Counted from the stretch's first letter, positions 10,860-22,032 are shown. The stretch is DNA of 64,000 bases from an uncultured Chloroflexia bacterium (GCA_963828165.1 CAWHDR010000001.1:2304001-2368000), one strand, 5' to 3'. Notes: generated by a model from the letters alone, not told the origin. Numbers and translations: made by a program.

Positions 10860-12239
10860 TCAGGTACCGGGCAGGTGGACGAGGCGCGTCGATCCGGTCA
10901 GTGCGGTCACGGCCGAGACGAAGACGGACTGCAGGTCCTCGGACCGTGGCTGACAGTAGAAATGATCGCCATCGGTGTTCTCGGCCGCGATGCACCCGTT
11001 GTCGATGGAGGTGTTCGCCATGTCCGCGAGCACCCTGGTAACCGACTTGTTCTTGTAGAAACCGGTCGAGTCCGGGCACAGGTCCGCGCTCGTGACCCCG
11101 AAGCCGACCGTGAAGATCTCGATCCCGGCGGTCTTTGCCGCGGTCGACTCGGTGTTGGCCGCCAGGCACGTGAAGTCGGCGGCGGTTCCGGCGCTGTTGT
11201 AGTTGGGCGTGCCGTCCGTCTCGAACAGGATCGCCTTCGCGACACCGGCGCGACCGTTGGCCAGGAGATACTGGCGGGCCATCTTGATAGGCGTGGACAG
11301 GTTCGTACCGGTACTGGACGAGCTCATGCAATTGATCGCCTTGACGATCAGGCTGCTGGGATTCGCGGCGCCGGCGGCGTTCAGGTACGACTCGTTGACG
11401 GGGGCGCCCGTTCCGGTCAGCCCGACCGGGATCCACTTCGGGAGGTCGACCGGATAGGTGGACCCGTATTCGGGCGCGCTTCCGCCGACGCCCTTGGCCG
11501 GGGTATTGACGCCGCTGCACGTCGACGTGGTCTTGCTGGGGCCGAGTAGCCCCATGCCGACGTGCTGGATCGCCGGGTCGAGATACGTGAGCAAGGACTT
11601 GGCGGCGTCCTTCGCGTTCGTCATGTCGGCGGCGCTCATGCTGCTCGTCCGGTCGATGATGACGACCAGATCGAGCGGCACGGTCGGCGCAGCACCGCAG
11701 GGGCCACGGCAGGCGGCGGAGGTGACGATCTGGGTGGTGCCGCTCGTCACGCCGACGGCTGGGCCGAAACGGAACGGGACCGTCGCCGTCGAGGTGAGGA
11801 CGATGGTGTTGCAGGTGTCGCCTTCCGCCGGGACGCACGGCGCGACGCACACGCCGGCGCTACAGACCCACGCGCCGAAGACGTTACTCCCGGGATTGCA
11901 CACCGATGGAACGTCATTGGCGTCGAACACGCCGTTACCGTCGCGGTCACCGACGAGGCATCGATAGCTCACGGTCACATTCGCGGCCGGCAGCCCCGCG
12001 TAGTTCTTCTGAGCGAACTCCAACGCGACCGTACGCGCGTTGGGACCACTTGCCGGCAGCTGCGATGCGCCCGCCAGCGCGCCGGCGTCAAGGGCACTCC
12101 AGAGTTCCTGGTTCGCGCGCCGCAGCACCCCGACGTCGAGGACGATCGCGGCGAATCCCATCAGGACGCACAGCATCAAGGCGAAGATGACGATCATCTG
12201 GCCGCGCTGCCCGTCGGTCCGTCTCCGCATCTGCCTCAT
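10860..12239 (-). CDS. TadG-like pilus assembly protein with vWA domain
   Basis: N-terminal RGQMIVIFAL...LDAGALAGA Tad motif; vWA MIDAS-like DRTSS, T and TDG residues; many Cys. Confidence 0.85.
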   Translation of the reverse strand: MRQMRRRTDGQRGQMIVIFALMLCVLMGFAAIVLDVGVLRRANQELWSALDAGALAGASQLPASGPNARTVALEFAQKNYAGLPAANVTVSYRCLVGDRDGNGVFDANDVPSVCNPGSNVFGAWVCSAGVCVAPCVPAEGDTCNTIVLTSTATVPFRFGPAVGVTSGTTQIVTSAACRGPCGAAPTVPLDLVVIIDRTSSMSAADMTNAKDAAKSLLTYLDPAIQHVGMGLLGPSKTTSTCSGVNTPAKGVGGSAPEYGSTYPVDLPKWIPVGLTGTGAPVNESYLNAAGAANPSSLIVKAINCMSSSSTGTNLSTPIKMARQYLLANGRAGVAKAILFETDGTPNYNSAGTAADFTCLAANTESTAAKTAGIEIFTVGFGVTSADLCPDSTGFYKNKSVTRVLADMANTSIDNGCIAAENTDGDHFYCQPRSEDLQSVFVSAVTALTGSTRLVHLPGT

Positions 12240-12273
12240 GGTGGTCCCTTCTCCCGAGATGGCCCGTGCGGGT

Positions 12274-12714
12274 CTACTCGAGACGCATCTGAGCAGTCGA
12301 AGACAACTGGAACGTGTTGCCCACGGCAAGCGGCCAGATGAATCGGTACAGGTAGTTCACGGTGACGATCACCGAATCTCCGGCCTGCCACGACGCGAGC
12401 GTGCAGGTCGACGGGATCGAACCGACCGGTCGGGCGCAACTGCTCGAGACCGTGAGGTCGGTCTGATTCAAGCCGGTTGCCATGCCCCGCACCCTGGCCT
12501 CGATGGCCGCCGCATTGGGGTTGACGGTGCCGAGGCGGGCGCCCTCGCGGGCGGCGTTGGTGACGGTGATGGAAGAGTTCAGGCCCATGCCCATGTCCAC
12601 GATCCCCGCGATCAGCAACAGGAATAGCGGGAGGACGAGAGCGAACTCGACGAGAGCCTGACCGCGCCCGCGATCTGGGACGCGTTGAGACCGGTGCGAT
12701 CGTTCGATCGACAC
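12274..12714 (-). CDS. TadE family pseudopilin
   Basis: RGQALVEFALVLP...AAREGAR; GTG start preceded by a GGAAGGTG SD. Confidence 0.88.
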   Translation of the reverse strand: MSIERSHRSQRVPDRGRGQALVEFALVLPLFLLLIAGIVDMGMGLNSSITVTNAAREGARLGTVNPNAAAIEARVRGMATGLNQTDLTVSSSCARPVGSIPSTCTLASWQAGDSVIVTVNYLYRFIWPLAVGNTFQLSSTAQMRLE

Positions 12715-12926
12715 GGTTCGGCCACCTTCCCCGGTGATCCCCGATGTTGGCATCGGACCGACCTGCGATCCGATGCCGGGGACGTGGCGATACCTTGTCC
12801 CGCGCCCCTCGCCTTCGCAATGGGATATTGGTACGGAACGTTTGGCCGATGCGTTCGTGGACGGTGTCCCGACGCCCCACAACGGCCACGTTCCGGAGGC
12901 GTCTTTCGCCGGCGGTCGGCGCCAGA

Positions 12927-13790
12927 TCAGCCGACCGGCGGCTCCCAGCCGGAGGCCGCGGCCGCCGTCGCCAGGACGTCCTGGCGCGTCAGCCCGGCCG
13001 CCCGCAGCTCGCGCACGCCGGTATCGCCGGACGACTTCGAGAGCTTCCGGCCGTCGGGCCGTCGGATCAGCGGGTGGTGCAGGAACGTGGGCGGCTGCTC
13101 CCGACCGAGCAGGCGTCCGAGCCGGATCTGGGTCGGCGTGGCGTGGATCAGGTCGCGGCCACGAATGACGTGGTCGACATCCTGGCGGAGGTCGTCGACC
13201 ACGACGCTGAAGGGATAGGTCCAATTGCCGTCGCGATCGAGGATCGGCGGGTCACCGGCCGGCGCCACGTCACCAGCGCAGGGCCCCACCGCCGTGTCCA
13301 TCCACGTCTCGCGGCTGGCGCCGATCGCGGCCCGCAACATCGGCCCATCGAGCCCGCGCTCGCGGCAGCGACCCGGACAGCCGGGTCCAGTCCATGGGCT
13401 GGTGTTGGCCTCCGCCCAGTCCGTGAAGGTCGAGCGCGTGCAGTCGCAGCCGTACAGCAGGCCATCCGCACGAAGGCGCGCCAGCGCCGCCTCGTAGGCC
13501 GGCGCGACGTCGGGGTCCGCCTGCCGTGTCGGGCCCCGATCGGCCGCGAATCCCAGCCATGCCAGGTCCTCGATCAACGCCGCGTCGTACTCGGGCCGCG
13601 ACCGCACCCGATCGTGATCGTCGATCCGCAGCACGACCCGAGCGCCCACCGCCTCGGCGACGCCCCAGACCCAGATCGCGTTGGCGACGTGGCCAAGGTG
13701 GAGGTAGCCCGTCGGCGCGGGCGCGAACCGGGTCCACCCGCCACGCGGTACGCCCGAAAGGTCAGGTCGGCTCGTCGCCCCGGTCCTCAC
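12927..13790 (-). CDS. gluQ: Glutamyl-tRNA synthetase catalytic-domain paralog (GluQ-like); start uncertain
   Basis: RFAPAPTGYLHLGH (HIGH), LRIDD, CDC..C zinc site, VIRGRDL, KLSKS; no anticodon-binding domain. Confidence 0.78.
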   Translation of the reverse strand: MRTGATSRPDLSGVPRGGWTRFAPAPTGYLHLGHVANAIWVWGVAEAVGARVVLRIDDHDRVRSRPEYDAALIEDLAWLGFAADRGPTRQADPDVAPAYEAALARLRADGLLYGCDCTRSTFTDWAEANTSPWTGPGCPGRCRERGLDGPMLRAAIGASRETWMDTAVGPCAGDVAPAGDPPILDRDGNWTYPFSVVVDDLRQDVDHVIRGRDLIHATPTQIRLGRLLGREQPPTFLHHPLIRRPDGRKLSKSSGDTGVRELRAAGLTRQDVLATAAAASGWEPPVG

Positions 13791-14124
13791 GCGCCCGAGC
13801 GCGCTCCCGCTCCCGCTCCCGGTCACGCGACTCGAGCCCCCGCGTGGCCGCGAAGAGCCGCCGATACATGGCGAGCAGGTCCGCCTGCGGCATCGGGCCG
13901 TCGTTCGAGATCGAGACGCGGAGGAGCACCTCGCGCTCCCGGTCCGCATCGCGGATCGCCGTCCGTCCAGCCGCGGCCTTCGCCCGCCCGGCCTCGCGCG
14001 CGAGCTCGGCCCGCTCGTTCAGCATGGCCACGAGCTTGCGATCGAGCGCATCGATGCGCCGACGGAGCCGGCGCAGCTCGGCGGTCTCGGTGGGCCGCCT
14101 TCGGTCGTCAGGCACGGGCGTCAC
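13762..14124 (-). CDS. Chorismate mutase (AroQ class, type II)
   Basis: LRRLRRRIDALDRKLVAMLNER...K...RDADRE motif. Confidence 0.88.
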   Translation of the reverse strand: MTPVPDDRRRPTETAELRRLRRRIDALDRKLVAMLNERAELAREAGRAKAAAGRTAIRDADREREVLLRVSISNDGPMPQADLLAMYRRLFAATRGLESRDRERERERARAREDRGDEPT

Positions 14125-14548
14125 CGAGCCGGCGCGCGATCGACTCCAGCGCCAGGTGGTAGCCGTGGGCGCCCTGGCCGACGATCGACTCGAGCGCGAT
14201 GTCGTGCAGGTAGTTGACGTGCCGGAACGGCTCCCGGCGAGAAGGATCGGAGAGGTGGACCTCGACGAACGGTCGCTCGATCGCAAGCAACGCGTCGCGC
14301 AGCGCCACGCTCGTGTGGGTGAGGCCTCCTGCGTTGACGATCGCGGCGTCGAAATCGCGGGCATGCAGCCGGTCGATCAGCGCGCCCTCGTGGTTCGACT
14401 GGAAGAAATCGATCGCCAGGCCGAGCTCCGCGGCTCGCGCGGCGATCCCCGCGTGGATCTCCTCGAGCGACTCGTGGCCGTAGATCTCCGGCTCGCGCGT
14501 GCCGACGAGGTTGAGGTTCGGCCCCTGGAGGACGAGGACGCGGGTCAT
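14108..14548 (-). CDS. aroQ: Type II 3-dehydroquinate dehydratase
   Basis: GPNLNLVGTREPEIYG, QSNHEG, THTSVALRDA, EVHLS motifs. Confidence 0.95.
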   Translation of the reverse strand: MTRVLVLQGPNLNLVGTREPEIYGHESLEEIHAGIAARAAELGLAIDFFQSNHEGALIDRLHARDFDAAIVNAGGLTHTSVALRDALLAIERPFVEVHLSDPSRREPFRHVNYLHDIALESIVGQGAHGYHLALESIARRLGDARA

Positions 14549-16200
14549 GGTGCGCTCCCGGCGGCCAGCATGGACCCGGCTGCGGCGGCGACCACCTCGT
14601 CCGGGACGTCCGTGCGCACCTCCACGCCCTGAGCCGTCGGCAGGACCCAGCGCATCCGTCCGCCGCTGTGCTTCTTGTCCGTCCCGAGATGCTCGAGCAC
14701 CTGCTCCAGGGAGTAGGGGAGGGGTTCGCGGGCGAGACCCAGCGAGTCCAGCAGGCCCGTGATGCGGGCGGCCCGCTCCGGCGGCGTGTCCCCGGTCGCG
14801 AGGCCGATCCGGCACGCGGCTCGAAGGCCGTAGGCCACGGCCTCACCATGGAGCAGGTCGGCGTACCCCGCCGCCGCCTCGACGGCATGCCCAAGCGAGT
14901 GACCGAGGTTGAGCGTGATCCGTCCGCCGCGTGGGCCACGCTCTCGCTCATCGGCCACGACCACCTCGACCTTCGCCCAGGCGCAGCGTTCGATGAGCTC
15001 CGCCACGTGGCCGTGTTCGACGGCATCGCGCTCCCCAGCGGCGATCGCCTCGCCATGGCGCTCGAGCAGCTCGAACAGCCGCTCATCGCCAAGCGCGGCC
15101 ATCTTCACCGCCTCGCCGAGTGCCGCCCGCCGCTGCCGCTCCGGCACGGTCGCGAGGACGCCGACATCGATGACGATCGCGGTGGGCTGGTGGAACGCGC
15201 CGACGAGGTTCTTGCCCTCCGGCAGGTCGACCGCGGTCTTGCCGCCGATGGAGGAGTCGATCTGGGCGACGAGCGTCGTCGGGACATGCACGATCGGGAC
15301 GCCACGCAGGTACGTCGCCGCAAGGAAGCCTGCGGCGTCGCCCAGCGCCCCGCCACCGACGGCGACGACGGGCTCGTCGCGCTCTGCCCGAAGCTTTGCC
15401 AACTCGCGTGCCGCGGTCTCGATGACCGACAGGCGCTTGGCCGCCTCCCCCCCGGGAAGCATCACCGTCGCGACGGTCCAGCCGGCGCGGGCGAGGCCCG
15501 CGGCGAGACGCTCACCCGTGGCCGCCCACGCCCCAGGTTCCGACACGAGGATCGCGCGTCGCGCCTCCAGCCGGTGAAGTGTCTCCTCGACGGCCATCGC
15601 CGCGATGCCATCACCCAGCACGATCCGGCCGATCGGCGTGGCCGTGCGTAGCAGCGTGGTCGGGTGGTCGCCGGTCGTCGTGCTCCGTTCCGCGAGGTCC
15701 CGTTCCACCCGCGCCACCACTTCCTGGACCTCCGCCACGCCCGCGACGTGTACGTCGGCCGCGGCGTAGAAGCGTTCGCGTCGCGCAGCGAGATCGCGGA
15801 GCGTGCCGATCGGGTCGCGGCCCGTGACCAGCGGCCGGACATGCGGGGAGCGCCGGAGCCGCTGGGCGAGGACCTCCGGCCGGCTGTCCAGCCAGACGCT
15901 CAACCGCCCGCGGTACAGCGCCCAGCGGTTGCGCGGATCGACGACCGCGCCACCCCCCGTCGCGACGATGCGCCGGAGCTCCGGGTCGGGGTCCGGAGGC
16001 CCCAGGTCCGCGACGGCGCGGCGTTCGAGGATGCGGAATGCCGCTTCCCCATCCTCTTCGAAGATCCGCGGGATCGGGCGCCCGTCCTCGTGTTCGATCC
16101 GCTCGTCGAGGTCGATGAAGACGGCACCGTGCCGGTGGGCGAGGCGCTTGCCCACGACGCTCTTGCCGCTCCCGGGCAGCCCGACGAGCACGACGTCCAT
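14545..16200 (-). CDS. aroKB: Shikimate kinase / 3-dehydroquinate synthase fusion
   Basis: GLPGSGKS P-loop and TGGG; then GGGALGD, PTTLVAQIDSSIGGK, LNLGHSLGH, LHGEAV. Confidence 0.93.
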   Translation of the reverse strand: MDVVLVGLPGSGKSVVGKRLAHRHGAVFIDLDERIEHEDGRPIPRIFEEDGEAAFRILERRAVADLGPPDPDPELRRIVATGGGAVVDPRNRWALYRGRLSVWLDSRPEVLAQRLRRSPHVRPLVTGRDPIGTLRDLAARRERFYAAADVHVAGVAEVQEVVARVERDLAERSTTTGDHPTTLLRTATPIGRIVLGDGIAAMAVEETLHRLEARRAILVSEPGAWAATGERLAAGLARAGWTVATVMLPGGEAAKRLSVIETAARELAKLRAERDEPVVAVGGGALGDAAGFLAATYLRGVPIVHVPTTLVAQIDSSIGGKTAVDLPEGKNLVGAFHQPTAIVIDVGVLATVPERQRRAALGEAVKMAALGDERLFELLERHGEAIAAGERDAVEHGHVAELIERCAWAKVEVVVADERERGPRGGRITLNLGHSLGHAVEAAAGYADLLHGEAVAYGLRAACRIGLATGDTPPERAARITGLLDSLGLAREPLPYSLEQVLEHLGTDKKHSGGRMRWVLPTAQGVEVRTDVPDEVVAAAAGSMLAAGSAP

Positions 16201-16209
16201 CGCCCGGAC

Positions 16210-17532
16210 CTAGTCGTCGCCGCCCGAGCCGGCTTCGTCCGACCCGGTCAGTCCATGCGCCGGTACTCCGGTGTCGGGCCCGGCCACCCCGCCGGTCCGC
16301 CTGCCACCGGCGACGGGTGCTTCCGGTGTCCGCTCGATCCGCGCCCGGTACGTGGCCAGATTCGCGACGACGTCGTCGATCGTGTCGCCACCCATCTTCT
16401 CCATCACGAAGGCGGCGAGGGTCAACATGACCATCGCCTCGGCGACCACTCCGGCAGCCGGCACGACGCTGATATCGCTTCGCTCGTAGTGCGCCTTGTC
16501 GACCGCCTCGCCGGTGATGAGGTCGGCCGATGGAAGCGGTCGGGCGAGGGTCGAGATCGGCTTGACCGCGCCACGGACGACGAGCGGCTCCCCGTTGGTC
16601 ACGCCGCCGGTCAGCCCACCGGCATTGTTCGAGCGATGGACCCAGCGCCCGCCGTCATCGCGTCCGGCGATCACGTCGTGCACTGCCGAGCCGAACCGCC
16701 GGGTCTGCTCGAACCCGAGCCCGAACTCGACGCCCTTGACGATGTTGATGCTCATCACCGCCGCGGCCAGCGCCGCATCGAGCCGGCGGTCCCAATGGAC
16801 GTATGAGCCAAGACCGATGGGCAGGCCGTGGGCGACGACCTCGAACACGCCGCCGATCGTGTCGCCGTTCGAGCGTGCCTCATCGATCCGGGCGATCATC
16901 GCTGCCTCGGCGGCCGGGTCGGGGCAGCGCAACGGCGAGGCGTCGGCCTCCTCGCGCGCGCGGGTGCAGTTGGCCGGGTCGACGGCCACGCCGCCCACCT
17001 CGGCGGTGAACGACCAGACCTCGATGCCGAGCTCGTGCAGGAAGGCGCGGGCTACGGCCCCCGCCGCGACGCGGGCCGCGGTCTCGCGCGCCGAGGCGCG
17101 CTCGAGCACGTTGCGGACGTCGTTGAAGCCGTACTTCAGCGCACCGGCCAGGTCGGCATGGCCGGGACGGACGCGCGTGACTGGCGTTGCCCGCTTGTCG
17201 CCGCCCTCAGCCTTGTCACGCAGGGCCTCGGCCGCCTCGTCGTCCAGGGCCCCGACCTGCATGACCGTCGTCCAGTTCTCCCAGTCACGGTTGCGGACGA
17301 GGAGCAGGACCGGCGAGCCGAGCGTGCGGCCGTGCCGGACCCCGCCGAGGATCTCGGCCCGGTCCTGCTCGATCGCCTGACGAGCGCCGCGGCCGTAGCC
17401 CTTCTGGCGCCGTGACAGGTCGATGGCGATGGCATCCTCGCTGAGCTCGAGCCCTGCGGGGACGCCCTCGACCGTGACCCCGAGCGCCGGCCCGTGCGAC
17501 TCCCCAGCGGTGAGGAAGCGGAAGGCGGTCAC
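16210..17532 (-). CDS. aroC: Chorismate synthase
   Basis: TAGESHG, RPGHAD, ERASARETAARVAAG, KPISTL, ERSD motifs. Confidence 0.96.
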   Translation of the reverse strand: MTAFRFLTAGESHGPALGVTVEGVPAGLELSEDAIAIDLSRRQKGYGRGARQAIEQDRAEILGGVRHGRTLGSPVLLLVRNRDWENWTTVMQVGALDDEAAEALRDKAEGGDKRATPVTRVRPGHADLAGALKYGFNDVRNVLERASARETAARVAAGAVARAFLHELGIEVWSFTAEVGGVAVDPANCTRAREEADASPLRCPDPAAEAAMIARIDEARSNGDTIGGVFEVVAHGLPIGLGSYVHWDRRLDAALAAAVMSINIVKGVEFGLGFEQTRRFGSAVHDVIAGRDDGGRWVHRSNNAGGLTGGVTNGEPLVVRGAVKPISTLARPLPSADLITGEAVDKAHYERSDISVVPAAGVVAEAMVMLTLAAFVMEKMGGDTIDDVVANLATYRARIERTPEAPVAGGRRTGGVAGPDTGVPAHGLTGSDEAGSGGDD

Positions 17533-18422
17533 TCCGCCGCGGCCGCCGCCGGTTCGCCGGTGGGTTCGCCCTCGGCCGAGCGCAGACCGCCTGCTCGAGC
17601 CTCGGCGAGCTTTGCCTGCATGAGGTCGAGGGGCGCCGGTTGCCCGGTCCAGAGCGTGAACGCCGCCGCTCCCTGGTGGAGCAGCATCAGCTCCCCGTCG
17701 GCCACGGTCGCGCCGGCCGCATCGGCATCGCGCAGCAAACGCGTGCGGTTGTAGATGAGATCCAGCACGAGCAGCTCGGCATGGAGGGCGTCGGCCGGGA
17801 TCGGGCTGATGTCACTGGTCAGCCCGATCGATGTCGCGTTGACCAGGACCTTCGTCTTCGCGAGCTCGGCCTCGATGATGGATTCGTGCCACGGCATCGC
17901 GCGGAGCTCCATGTGCGCCGCGGTCCGTCCGAAATGCTTCACGAGACCCTCGGCACGGTGCAGGTGACGGTTGAACACGACGATCCGCTGGAAGCCTTCG
18001 CGGATGAGGCCGTACACCACGGCGCGGCCACCGCCGCCAGCCCCCAGGATCACGGCCTGGCGGGGCATCTTCTGGCGACCGACGAGCTTGTCCAGCGCGA
18101 CCTTGAAGCCGGCCACGTCCGTGTTGTGGCCGATGAGTCGCTTGCCCTCGCGGGTGAGCGTGTTGACGGCGCCGGTGAAGGACGCCTCCTCCGTGAGGCG
18201 ATCGACCATCGGCACGACTCGCTCCTTGTGCGGGATCGTGACGTTGGCGCCGAGGAAGTCGTCGCCCCGCAGCTCCCCGATGGCGTCGGCAAGCCCGATC
18301 GGGGGGCGATCCCAAAGCTCGTACTTCGCGTCGATACCGAGCTCGTCGAAGGCGGCCTGCTGCATGGCACCCGAGAGTGAATGGGCAACCGGATGGCCGA
18401 TGAGGACGACACGTTTCGTCAT
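17529..18422 (-). CDS. aroE: Shikimate dehydrogenase
   Basis: [36 protein letters not shown] motifs. Confidence 0.94.
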
Positions 18423-19819
18423 GCTCGCACCCCTTCGAGGTCGCTGAAGAAGCCCGGATAGGAAACGGCGGCCGAGTCCGGTCGCTCGATGGTCATCGGT
18501 CCGGTCGCGACGAGTCCGGCCACCGCGAACGTCATCGCCAGGCGGTGATCGTCGAGGCTGTCGGTCGTCGCACCGCGCAACGACGCACCGCCCTGGATGC
18601 GCAGGTCGTCGCCGTCCACCTCGACGTTCGCGCCCATCGCGCGAAGGCCGGCGACCATACCGGCGATCCGGTCCGACTCCTTGTGCCGCAGCTCGCCCGC
18701 GCCGCGGATGGTGGTCGTGCCGCGGGCCTGGGTCGCGGCGAGGCACAGCACGGGGACCTCGTCGATGGCCGCCGCGACATCCTCCGGAGACAGGTCGATG
18801 GCGCGCAGGTCGGACGACCGCACGATGAGATCGGCCATCGGCTCGCCGACGTCCGGATCGGCGCTGGTGGAATCGGGCTCGACGCCCGCCGTTTTCCCGA
18901 CCGGGTGCTCCTCGATCTCGGCGCCCATGGCCCGCAGCAGGTCGATGACCGCGCGTCGTGTCGGGTTGACGCCGACGTCCCGGAGCGTCAACTCGGCGTC
19001 GGGATGGATGGACCCGGCGACCAGCCAGAAGGCGGCCGCGGACACATCGCCCGGCACTCGCTGGTCGATCGCCTGCACCGCCATCCCTCCTTCAACCGTC
19101 CAGGCCACGCCACCATCCCCATCGGCCCGGTCGACGGGCACCCCCCGGGCCCGCAGCATGCGCTCGGTGTGATCGCGCGTCGCCACCCGTTCCCGGACCG
19201 TCGTCCGACCCTCGGCTCGCAGCGCCGCCAACAGGATGGCCGACTTCACCTGGGCCGACGGCACGGGTGTCGTCACGTCCACCGCCCGGAGCGGGGTATG
19301 CCCGACTACGGTGAGGGGAGGGAGGGAATCGTCGTCTCGAGCGTGGAGCTCCGCGCCCATCCGGCGCAGTGGCTCGATGATACGAGCGACCGGACGGCGG
19401 CGCAACGAATCGTCCCCGTCCAGGACGCCGGTCAGCGGCAGGCCGGCGAGCATGCCGGCGATGAGTCGCAGACTCGTGCCGGAGTTGCCACAGTCCAGCG
19501 TGCGGGCGGGTTGCGTGAGGCCGTCCGCGCCGGGCGAGTGGACCCGGTAGCCAACGTTCCGGCCACGGCCGGGTGCGCCACCGCGCTCCGCTGCGCCCTC
19601 GGCATCGCCGTCCGGCTCCACGCGTGCTCCGAGCGCCCGCATGATCGCGGCCGTCGATCGCACGTCGGCGCCGTCGCCCGCCCCAAGGATCCGGCTCTCC
19701 CCGGCAGCCAGCGTCGCGAACAGGAGCGCCCGGTGGCTGATCGACTTGTCGCCGGGCAGCCGCAGCTCGCCGCGCAATCGGGCGGCGGGTCGGACCGTGG
19801 CGAGATCCGTGTGGATCAC
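18419..19819 (-). CDS. aroA: EPSP synthase (class II)
   Basis: [39 protein letters not shown] motifs. Confidence 0.95.
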
Positions 19820-20901
19820 CGCGGGCCCGATCGATCGCTGGCCCCGACGGCCGTGGCCGCGCCAGCCTGGACCGGCGCACCGTGGAGACCGCGGACCTGC
19901 GCGTGGATGGGCACGAGGTCCGTCATCAGGTCCCGGAACTGGTCCAGAGTGAGCTGCTGCTCGGCGTCGGACAGGGCGTCGTCCGGTGTGGGGTGGACCT
20001 CGACCATGACGCCGTCCGCTCCGACCGCGACACCACCGAGCGCGAGCGGCTTGACGAGCCAGCGCTTGCCGGTGGCGTGGCTCGGATCGACGATGACCGG
20101 AAGGTGGGTCAGGTGGTGGAGCAGCGGGACGGCCGCAAGGTCCATCGTGTTGCGCGTGTACGTCTCGAACGTCCGGATCCCGCGCTCGCACAGGATGACG
20201 TTCGGGTTCCCGGAACTGACGATGTACTCGGCGGCCATCAGGAACTCCTCGATGGTCGCGCCGTAGCCACGCTTGAGCATGACCGGTCGCGCGACCCGGC
20301 CCATCTCGCGGAGCAGCGAGTAGTTCTGCATGTTCCGGGTCCCGATCTGGAGGATGTCCGCGTACTCGGCGACGATGTCGACCTGGGACGGCTCCATCAC
20401 CTCGGTGATGATCGGCAGCCCGGTGCGCTCGCGTGCCTCGGCGAGATAGCGCAGGCCCTCGACGCCCAGGCCCTGGAAGGAGTACGGGCTCGTGCGTGGC
20501 TTGAACGCCCCGCCGCGCAGGATCGTGGCCCCGGCGGCCTTGACCGCATCGGCGGTCTCGAACAGCATGTCGCGGCTCTCGACCGAACAGGGGCCCGCCA
20601 TCATCGTCAGTGAGCCATCGCCGATGACCGCGTCCAGGACCCGGACCACCGTGTCCTCGGGCCGGAACTCCCGGGACGTCAGCTTGAACGGCTGGCTGAT
20701 CGGGGTGACCCGCTCGACGCCAGCCAGCGCCGACAGCCGCTCGACCAGCACCGGCTTGCGTCCGCCGATCTCCCCGACCACGGCGATCACCACGCGCTCG
20801 TCCCCGACGTGATCGAAGGGCGTCAGGCCCTCGGCCAGGATCCTGCTCTTGACTCCGAGGACCTCGGCCTCACTGGCGCCGACGGTCATCACGACGAACA
20901 T
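19816..20901 (-). CDS. aroF: DAHP synthase type I-beta with N-terminal regulatory (ACT-like) domain
   Basis: [36 protein letters not shown] motifs; GAGGAG SD. Confidence 0.94.
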
Positions 20902-20933
20902 CGCGGTGCGGTCTCCTCGTCGGTCGGCCAAAC

Positions 20934-20960
20934 AAAAAAGCAGAGGTGTGACCTCTGCTT
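20934..20960 (-). terminator. Attenuator terminator upstream of aroF
   Basis: Minus-strand AAGCAGAGGT-CAC-ACCTCTGCTT followed by TTTT, about 30 nt before the aroF start. Confidence 0.88.
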
Positions 20961-21008
20961 CGTTTGCCCGGCACGACCTGTGCCCCCGGTCCTATCGACC
21001 GGGAACGT

Positions 21009-21044
21009 TCATGCCGGGCATCGAAAATAGAAGTAGCGGTCCAT
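21009..21044 (-). CDS. Tyr/Phe-rich attenuation leader peptide MDRYFYFRCPA
   Basis: ATG GAC CGC TAC TTC TAT TTT CGA TGC CCG GCA TGA, lying between a promoter and a terminator ahead of the aro operon. Confidence 0.8.
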   Translation of the reverse strand: MDRYFYFRCPA

Positions 21045-21054
21045 GCGTGTGCGG

Positions 21055-21083
21055 AGTGTGCCGAGCGCCGCGCTCGATGTCAA
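21055..21083 (-). promoter_or_regulatory. Promoter of aro operon
   Basis: TTGACA-N17-CACACT; the -10 box ends 10 nt before the leader ATG. Confidence 0.7.
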
Positions 21084-21676
21084 CGCGCGTCGGGCTCCGC
21101 CAGGGCGCGCGACATGATGGCCGCGACCACGTCGGTCTTGGCGTCCGCGTAGTGCTGGACGTATTTCCAGTCCCGCGCCGCCAGGTCGTGCTTCGTTCGT
21201 TCGTACAGCAGGCGGTCCTCGTCGTGGCTGCGGAGCCAATCACGAAACGCCAGCATGCGCTCGATCTCCGTGGTCCCGACGGTGAAGACGTGGATGTTCG
21301 ACGCCGGATCCGATCCCTTGAACAGCCGATGCTCGAACCATTCCGGCTCGCGGATGCGGAGCACGTAGCCCGCGGCCTCCATCGGCGGCACGTAGGCGTC
21401 CTCGTCCGTCGAGTCCGGGACCGCCAGCACGATGTCGATGATCGGCTTGGCCGAGAGCCCGGGGACCGACGTCGATCCGACGTGCTCGAGGAGCCTGACC
21501 TGATCGCCCAGCGCGTCCCGAATGCGTGTCGCCTCCTCTTCGAAGGCAGTCGCCCAAGCCGGGTCGTAGTCGTCGAGGAGGACCGGACCCGCCAGGACCA
21601 CGAGCTCCCCGATCGTCACGTCGCGCAGGGCCTCCTCGCTGGCCGCCTGGGACATCGGTGGTCGCTCGTGAGTCAT
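21080..21676 (-). CDS. GrpB/UPF0157 family nucleotidyltransferase-like protein
   Basis: YDPAW, EHVGSTSVPGLSAKPIIDI, FRDWLR, Y..AK motifs. Confidence 0.9.
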   Translation of the reverse strand: MTHERPPMSQAASEEALRDVTIGELVVLAGPVLLDDYDPAWATAFEEEATRIRDALGDQVRLLEHVGSTSVPGLSAKPIIDIVLAVPDSTDEDAYVPPMEAAGYVLRIREPEWFEHRLFKGSDPASNIHVFTVGTTEIERMLAFRDWLRSHDEDRLLYERTKHDLAARDWKYVQHYADAKTDVVAAIMSRALAEPDAR

Positions 21677-21688
21677 GCGCGCTGCGGC

Positions 21689-21846
21689 CTACTCGAACCG
21701 GTCGAGCAGCGCCTCGGCCTGGAGCTTGCCCCAGCCGCGGAGGCTGGCTCGGTCGAAATAGACCGAGACGGCCATGTACAGGTGGTGGGCGCTGAGCTCA
21801 CTGCCGATCTGGGCGATGACAGCTTGCGCAGGTCGCCACTGATCAC
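21689..21846 (-). pseudogene. Ferritin remnant (frameshifted, internally deleted)
   Basis: SD GGAGG + GTG gives MISGDLRK; after a frame change it reads AVIAQIGSELSAHHLYMAVSVYFDRASLRGWGKLQAEALLDRFE*, like ferritin helix A (Q...EL....Y..M..YF). Confidence 0.65.
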
Positions 21847-21940
21847 AATGGTCCCTCCGAATCTGGCGAGTGCACGTGGCCGGATCGGTGGGTCCGGCCG
21901 CTCGTCGGCCTCATGATAGGATGGCGCCCGCCGTATCGAC

Positions 21941-22032
21941 GGAGAGGTCGCATAGAGGTCTAGTGCAGCGGTTTGCTAAACCGCCATGTGGGGCAACCTG
22001 CATCGAGGGTTCGAATCCCTCCCTCTCCGCCA
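21941..22032 (+). tRNA. tRNA-Ser(GCT)
   Basis: GGAGAGG/CCTCTCC acceptor, GCGGT-TTGCTAA-ACCGC anticodon arm, long variable arm, CCA. Confidence 0.95.

Follow-up and report, generated by a model that had tools for sequence, protein, structure and literature searches.

To our knowledge, worked examples of leader-peptide attenuation come almost entirely from Proteobacteria, with a few from Actinobacteria. In pheL and trpL, a leader open reading frame (ORF) contains a run of cognate codons and shares its end with a hairpin, and an intrinsic terminator precedes the first biosynthetic gene. Leaderless short regulatory ORFs are represented by the polycysteine upstream ORFs of mycobacteria. The pheL-pheA and trpL systems of Escherichia coli are named as classical attenuators (PMC11802643, PMC3082878). 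In Corynebacterium glutamicum, a leader peptide containing Phe-Tyr-Phe is encoded ahead of aroF (PMC4046766), and read-through was reported to go up under Phe but not under Tyr limitation (PMC11802643 citing Neshat 2014; PMC7356990). Leader peptides made without a ribosome-binding site, the ilvB leader for example, are also on record for C. glutamicum in a title cited in PMC4046766.

An element of related build was analysed in a 64,000-nt stretch of DNA from an uncultured Chloroflexia bacterium (the window), where it precedes aroF, the first gene of a putative shikimate operon. It is a real, conserved cis-regulatory element in which a known principle is realized in an unusual build. As in aroR-aroF of C. 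glutamicum, a short Phe-Tyr-Phe ORF is located directly upstream of a DAHP synthase gene, the FYF order being found in the window peptide and in 21 of 30 aroF-derived leaders. The two differ in phylum and were compared by published description. The window aroF encodes a ferredoxin-like domain (Pfam); the C. glutamicum DAHP synthase belongs to another subclass.

With pheL and trpL the window shares the run of cognate codons, the hairpin over the end of the ORF and the terminator before the first gene. In contrast to these, it has no third segment for the terminator 5' arm and hence no 2:3 antiterminator, its regulatory codons are placed just before the first helix rather than inside it, and this helix abuts the terminator. 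Furthermore, the window leader is leaderless, it mixes Phe and Tyr codons (with Trp in relatives) and it has no Rfam leader match. The leaderless regulatory ORFs of Actinobacteria resemble it in starting at the 5' end without a Shine-Dalgarno sequence and in having cognate codons that report supply, whereas the amino acids, the lineage and the RNA structures differ. The preliminary description of the locus had considered such control undescribed for this lineage. This stands in so far as nothing was found in print for Chloroflexota, but the principle itself is known from C. glutamicum aroR.

Promoter, leader and RNA structure upstream of aroF

The features of the element and of the genes behind it are collected in Table 1. 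The promoter and ORF first described (TTGACA-N17-CACACT followed 10 nt on by an 11-codon ORF with four aromatic codons and no Shine-Dalgarno sequence) were seen on the minus strand, and the ORF coordinates given at that time proved correct within a base or two. The codons of the ORF are ATG GAC CGC TAC TTC TAT TTT CGA TGC CCG GCA TGA. The CACACT hexamer was not called by a promoter consensus scan and matches TATAAT at 3 of 6 positions; at matching spacing in relatives the hexamers CACACT, TACCGT, TAGAGT or TAGGGT are found. TTGAC itself is unchanged across 30/30 aligned relatives and its spacing to the leader start is 35–44 nt in 104 of 105 loci. No Shine-Dalgarno sequence was found before the leader ATG, where the room is too short, and as the ATG follows the −10 hexamer by 10 nt the ORF is leaderless or nearly so. 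In a related family with small genomes the hexamer ends 6–7 nt ahead of the ATG, which would put the 5' end of the transcript on the start codon or immediately beside it. The upstream gene, of the GrpB family, is located at 21080-21676 on the minus strand, and it is its TGA that the −35 box of the leader overlaps.

Table 1. Positions of the regulatory features and genes, counted from the first nucleotide of the window.
Feature	Position	Strand	Remarks
−35 box TTGACA	21078..21083	-	overlaps TGA stop of upstream GrpB gene
−10-like hexamer CACACT	21055..21060	-	17-nt spacer behind −35 box
Leader ORF MDRYFYFRCPA + TGA	21009..21044	-	11 codons; ATG 21044-21042, 10 nt past −10 hexamer
Regulatory aromatic codons TAC TTC TAT TTT	21024..21035	-	four consecutive
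P1 5' arm UGCCCGGCAUGA	21009..21020	-	last three sense codons and stop
P2 hairpin GUUCCCGGUC-GAUAG-GACCGGGGGC	20982..21006	-	10 bp, nested in P1
P1 3' arm UCGUGCCGGGCA	20965..20976	-	pairs with P1 5' arm
Intrinsic terminator, stem GAAGCAGAGGU/ACCUCUGCUUU, loop CAC, then U6-G-U3	20930..20961	-	fold and site scan
aroF, DAHP synthase with N-terminal ferredoxin-like domain	19816..20901	-	Pfam PF00793, PF18152; first operon gene
aroA, aroE, aroC, aroK-aroB fusion, aroQ, chorismate mutase type II, GluQ-RS-like	12927..19815	-	Pfam; rest of putative operon

The 3' end of the leader had been noted to be complementary to a downstream segment. This was borne out by the pairing of UGCCCGGCAUGA with UCGUGCCGGGCA (helix P1), which encloses a 10-bp hairpin (P2). 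The minimum free energy (MFE) of the region is −63.1 kcal/mol (z = −6.5), and none of 200 shuffled sequences folded as well. In the window, AAC separates the P1 3' arm from the stem of the terminator, which as DNA reads GAAGCAGAGGT-CAC-ACCTCTGCTTT plus TTTGTTT (20961-20937 and tail). The U-tailed hairpin reported just ahead of aroF was thus found, and it is the sole terminator-like site in 20000-22000, where 0.4 were expected from shuffles. In the whole 3.3-Mb genome, 12 hairpin-plus-T-run sites were found, the aroF-leader terminator among them, and canonical intrinsic terminators accordingly seem rare in this lineage of 68% GC. Searching 20400-21600 against Rfam at E-values up to 10 returned 9 weak matches, all with E≥2.6 and far below gathering scores, with no leader, T-box or riboswitch family among them.

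The gene order aroF-aroA-aroE-aroC-aroKB-aroQ-CM-gluQ-like read initially from the sequence agrees with the Pfam assignments. Judged by their close packing, the eight genes are presumably controlled as one transcript. Past the operon, on the same strand, Flp-pilus-type TadE-like and Tad/VWA-domain genes are found at 10860-13224 (Pfam). A scan of the whole genome returned no other leader-peptide attenuators of like build; under strict criteria, the aroF leader is the only combination of promoter, short ORF and terminator in the genome.

Conservation of the element within the class

In an AroF search the gene was found in 33 of 41 related genomes. The layout upstream of aroF is common to all 30 loci aligned, of which the genus contributed 17 and a second family of the order 13; it consists of TTGAC, 35–42 nt, a 10–12-codon ORF ending in TGA, P1, P2 and the terminator, in that order. 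The short ORF rich in Tyr and Phe was kept in 30/30 loci and the stems carry changes on both sides. The terminator stem GCAG(A/G)GG...CCUCUGC is likewise identical in 30/30 aroF-derived loci. Beyond these loci the constancy of this stem is partly a matter of construction, since the motif and the covariance model described below both favour the same stem.

A strict motif consisting of the P1 5' arm, the stop codon and the terminator stem was present in exactly one copy each in 115 of the 401 genomes of the class. By family, matches were obtained in 101/137 genomes of f1, 13/16 of f2, 0/92 of f3, 0/153 of f4 and 0/2 of f5, and the reversed motif, used as a control, gave 0 matches in the class genomes. 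The f1 genomes missed by the motif carry variants with a TAA or TAG stop, with a longer terminator loop or, in one case, with the leader MSQYWYFI, behind which both P1 and the terminator differ. The class includes two sister-like families with genomes of ~3 Mb and ~1.1 Mb, together with two larger outgroup families, a pattern also described for CSP1-4, Limnocylindraceae, QHBO01 and P2-11E (PMC13212565). No aroF leader was found directly upstream in three genomes of other class families (L132, L133, L134), in which aroF overlaps the end of the preceding gene; the C-terminus encoded by this gene presumably resembles an AroH-type chorismate mutase. One genome (G267) has two aroF copies (L128; L130/L131), of which one is located behind another gene and has no leader and the other is preceded by the MSQYWYFI variant. 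The aroF behind MSQYWYFI matches in two overlapping pieces, possibly owing to a frameshift or an assembly error.

The persistence of the element next to aroF bears on the simplest reading of the region, namely a terminator of the GrpB gene with an ORF formed by chance. The hairpins are indeed located 60–150 nt past the GrpB stop codon. The element, however, keeps its own TTGAC promoter, accompanies aroF whatever gene is located further upstream and, as noted above, is the sole combination of its type in the genome under strict criteria, leaving this reading with a practically negligible probability.

Structural conservation was evaluated across the distinct sequences. The P1 3' arm, which is outside the search motif, was found in 103/103 of these, and the 12 positions of P1 make standard pairs in 83 to 103 of 103 sequences, with one position changing from A-U (91) to C-G (7). 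P2 has 78 distinct interiors among 103 relatives, at a mean ΔG of −13.6 kcal/mol and a mean z of −2.5. In an alignment of 60 sequences, 88.2% of cells were paired, compared to 37–48% with slid partners, and changes on both sides were observed at 14 of 32 pairs, 8 of them in P2 (8/10 P2 pairs). Of 500 shuffles, 0 to 4 equalled the structure statistics of this alignment. In P2, the apical loops (20992-20996 in the window; L001-L106) very often contain UAG, UGA or UAA, as in GAUAG, CUAG, CUGA and GUAA.

A phylum-wide RNA family

A covariance model, R1, was built on the 60-sequence alignment. Matches to R1 were obtained in 41 of the 151 Chloroflexota genomes sampled, a count that takes in G451, which is flagged unpublished. 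These include families far from the class of the window (f25 8/8, f22 7/7, f14 4/4 and f17 4/5), and further searches gave matches in f8 (4/4) and f4 (6/41, a count that takes in the unpublished G131). As a specificity control, R1 was searched against 151 genomes of the phylum of a Streptomyces record, among which Corynebacterium may be missing, and gave no match (0/151).

Of the R1 matches, 39 were fetched and 27 clear elements were examined. In all 27, an aromatic run is encoded in a short ORF, P1 is GC-rich and the terminator has a U tail. The runs read YYYF, FYYWF, YWFYF, WYYDF, YTFAF, YFAF, WYY or W..WYW, and the leaders of f4 include MNQNWFYG and MNHPFWYYA. The genes behind the matches encode DAHP synthases with the ferredoxin-like domain; among L150:1-730, L167:1-717, L151:1-719 and L172:1-718, a prephenate dehydrogenase, a class I Trp/Tyr-type tRNA synthetase and two DAHP synthases without the ferredoxin-like domain were found instead. 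This suggests that one RNA family serves an aromatic regulon in other Chloroflexota. The core of P1, GGCAUGA with its partner UC(A/G)UGCC, is kept throughout the phylum (21009-21016 in the window; L140-L178), which places AUG or GUG on both P1 arms.

The aromatic run as a coding feature

In 104 distinct relatives the aromatic codons are concentrated at codons 4–8, and 102 of 103 distinct leaders of relatives have 2–5 aromatic residues. The run is kept with a varying order (FYF, YFY, FFFY, FWY, YWF, WYY, YYYF) in leaders of 8 to ~25 codons, and it is the only constant feature of the leaders across the phylum, as its internal order, the residues that follow it and the position of the stop all vary. 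The stop is located just before P1, within the P1 5' arm or ~28 nt past the start of P1. Depending on lineage, the GGCAUGA core is read in three frames, as GCA-UGA, GGC-AUG-A or CGG-CAU-GA. The P1 core is thus a feature of the RNA, and the aromatic run a feature of the coding sequence.

Codon choice within the run was also unusual. Leader Phe codons are TTT in 99 cases and TTC in 100, and leader Tyr codons TAT in 32 and TAC in 102; in aroF, aroC and aroKB of the window taken together, TTT accounts for 0 of 27 Phe codons and TAT for 1 of 18 Tyr codons. Of 103 leaders, 65 have TTT as the last aromatic codon. A stalling sensor would be expected to use rare codons read by wobble at a fixed position, and an aromatic run of changing order with rare codons fits a ribosome-read sensor of charged Phe- and Tyr-tRNA, and possibly of Trp-tRNA.

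The same leaders could in principle encode a TnaC-like arrest peptide, in which free Phe or Tyr together with the nascent peptide would hold the ribosome at the stop codon such that P1 is melted and the terminator active. The stop codon within P1, the Pro-Ala/Val-UGA ending of leaders order-wide (an ending partly fixed by the search motif) and a logic that is right for feedback repression are in line with this. Across the phylum, however, neither the C-terminus of the leader nor the stop position is conserved, leaders ending for example in FSPPA, FSCGMTGLRAT, FAFMRPARLGAHVM or WYYV, and the three reading frames of the GGCAUGA core also count against a conserved peptide. As only the aromatic run is constant, and as it contains rare codons, decoding speed rather than peptide sequence appears to be what is read, and we consider an arrest peptide highly improbable.

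Taken at the level of the sequence, the element is thus likely to be a ribosome-mediated leader-peptide transcription attenuator of the aromatic amino-acid pathway. The near-leaderless Phe/Tyr attenuator before the shikimate operon that the preliminary description put forward is strongly supported by the 30/30 loci, the phylum-wide R1 matches, the kept aromatic run and the rare codons.

Folding of the leader with a ribosome in place

The switch was investigated further by folding the RNA at equilibrium while a ribosome footprint masked one codon position after another. No classical antiterminator was found, the probability of the terminator remaining at 0.87–0.94 under every footprint. Masking the leader codons stepwise, as initially suggested for revealing competing structures, therefore never removed the terminator and no switch made of RNA only is visible. 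When the RNA was cut before the terminator 3' arm, the 5' arm was unpaired with the ribosome on codons 4–6.

The only partner found for the terminator 5' arm is the leader itself. P1 could be extended such that the aromatic codons (CUUCUAUUUUCG in the window, CUUCUACUUUCG in most of the genus) pair with the terminator 5' arm CGAAGCAGAGG, and the position of the ribosome would decide between the structures. In RNA cut before the terminator 3' arm, the MFE fold contains this pairing in 17/17 loci of the genus and 6/13 loci of the second family, and in f8, which has Trp-rich leaders, ACCAG in the terminator is accompanied by UGGU in the leader. The duplex is, however, no better than that formed by shuffled leaders (mean z +0.10, 3/104 at p<0.05) or by shuffles of codon order (mean z +0.15, 4/104 at p<0.05). 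Moreover, it is weak or absent in YFY, IYRF and MTTYRYF leaders and, by eye, in f4 and f25, and at equilibrium the full terminator always wins over it. The logic would also be inverted, as a stalled ribosome hides the codons and would favour termination in starvation. Being no better than shuffles and absent in several lineages, the pairing was rejected as a general switch, and its extension of P1 is an unlikely explanation of control. Of the competition between leader and terminator 5' arm originally proposed, the pairing in truncated RNA therefore stands, while its role as the switch does not. Two further pairings were discarded by eye: a hairpin between the spacer after P2 and the P1 3' arm (GGCAC/GUGCC), which is present in the genus and not kept in other genera, and pairing of the G-rich P2 3' arm or of P1 GGUC with the terminator 3' arm or loop, which is not conserved.

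The failure of footprint folding to reveal an RNA antiterminator is consistent with an external factor, that is, with P1/P2 being a site for a protein or small ligand that controls the terminator, and with the ORF being incidental or a helper. The retention of the P1 core GGCAUGA/UCRUGCC phylum-wide beyond the needs of pairing points the same way. A ligand is on the other hand difficult to reconcile with the Rfam result (best E = 2.6, no riboswitch or T-box) and with the freedom of P2 in both sequence and length. In addition, the distance from the promoter to the start of the ORF is fixed, the reading frame is open in every case and the aromatic run is kept as amino acids, which together make control by such a site very doubtful.

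A possible role for P1 in antitermination

In contrast to the P1 interior and the distance to the gene, which vary widely, two spacings are constant. The first runs from the last aromatic codon to the CCCGG core of P1 and is 5 nt in 90 of 104 sequences. In the window the CCCGG core is also 5 nt away and the fold has P1 starting 3 nt after the last aromatic codon. In other classes the distance from the aromatic codon to the first pair of P1 is 2–8 nt, or 12 nt in L167, as read off the folds, the scripted figure being unusable in about half the rows. The second is the gap between P1 and the terminator, which is 0 nt in 61 of 104 sequences and ≤5 nt in all 104; of the 27 elements of other classes, 24 have no gap (0 nt) and the remaining 3 a gap of 1 nt. 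The window is looser than most relatives, its gap measuring 3 nt when counted to the extended stem of the terminator and 6 nt when counted to the G-C core. Opening of the 5 basal P1 pairs costs 13.3 kcal/mol, which exceeds the −12.7 kcal/mol of the whole terminator core.

The base of a terminator hairpin forms inside the exit channel of RNA polymerase, which the 5' strand of the hairpin can leave only with a few free bases. We tentatively propose, from this general knowledge of terminator formation and from the geometry, that P1 may block the terminator by abutment, with the stalled ribosome at its foot; the balance of probability is at present against this model in its full form. Transcription would start a few bases ahead of the leader ATG and the ribosome would read the 11-codon leader straight from the 5' end. 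In a shortage of charged tRNA-Phe or tRNA-Tyr, the ribosome would wait at codons 4–7, the last of which is the rare UUU, and would reach only the foot of the GC-rich P1, leaving it intact. Established ribosome footprints are the basis for placing the stalled ribosome at the P1 foot. At good supply, the ribosome would move on to the stop codon inside the P1 5' arm and melt P1, upon which the U-tailed terminator would end most transcripts before aroF. Intact P1 would then be an antiterminator without bases in common with the terminator: with the P1 3' arm running straight into the terminator 5' arm, the base of the terminator would not be drawn into RNA polymerase. P2 may be a pause or nucleation hairpin.

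That the response raises the genes when Phe or Tyr is short is inferred by analogy to aroR of C. glutamicum; should the sign be as in that system, intact P1 must prevent termination. Two points count against the abutment model: it predicts read-through even without translation, unlike classical attenuators, and the gap in the window is looser than in most relatives.

Leader transcripts in RNA-library assemblies

Parts of the stretch are covered by contigs in soil RNA-library assemblies from four studies. These contigs cannot give levels, strands or true ends, and DNA carry-over is possible. One contig identical to the window covers 21038-20906 with adapter at both ends, one from a relative covers 21039-20675 with adapter at 21039 and another covers 21009-20859. 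The RNA-library contigs thus extend from the leader through the terminator to the beginning of aroF. In two studies the contigs end 6–7 nt inside the ORF (21038, 21039), joined directly to adapter, which weakly hints at a nearby transcript start. The X2, X3 and X5 contigs stop at or before 21039 and the X6 contigs reach 21064; none covers 21065-21300. No contig ending cleanly at the terminator was seen.

Significance

Entry into the shikimate pathway appears to be under the control of one compact element in a large phylum of soil and freshwater whose members are mostly uncultured. The genes that follow this element in relatives also include tyrA, a Trp/Tyr-type tRNA synthetase gene and other DAHP synthase genes, and R1 could be used to annotate genes of the aromatic regulon in thousands of metagenome-assembled Chloroflexota genomes. 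It is conceivable, at rather less than even chance, that aromatic genes of Chloroflexota are under an undescribed RNA family in which P1 is a non-overlapping antiterminator. As no alternative hairpin is present, the element offers a testable system for the override of an intrinsic terminator by a ribosome in the absence of an overlapping antiterminator. If true, abutment would represent a new coupling of ribosome position to termination.
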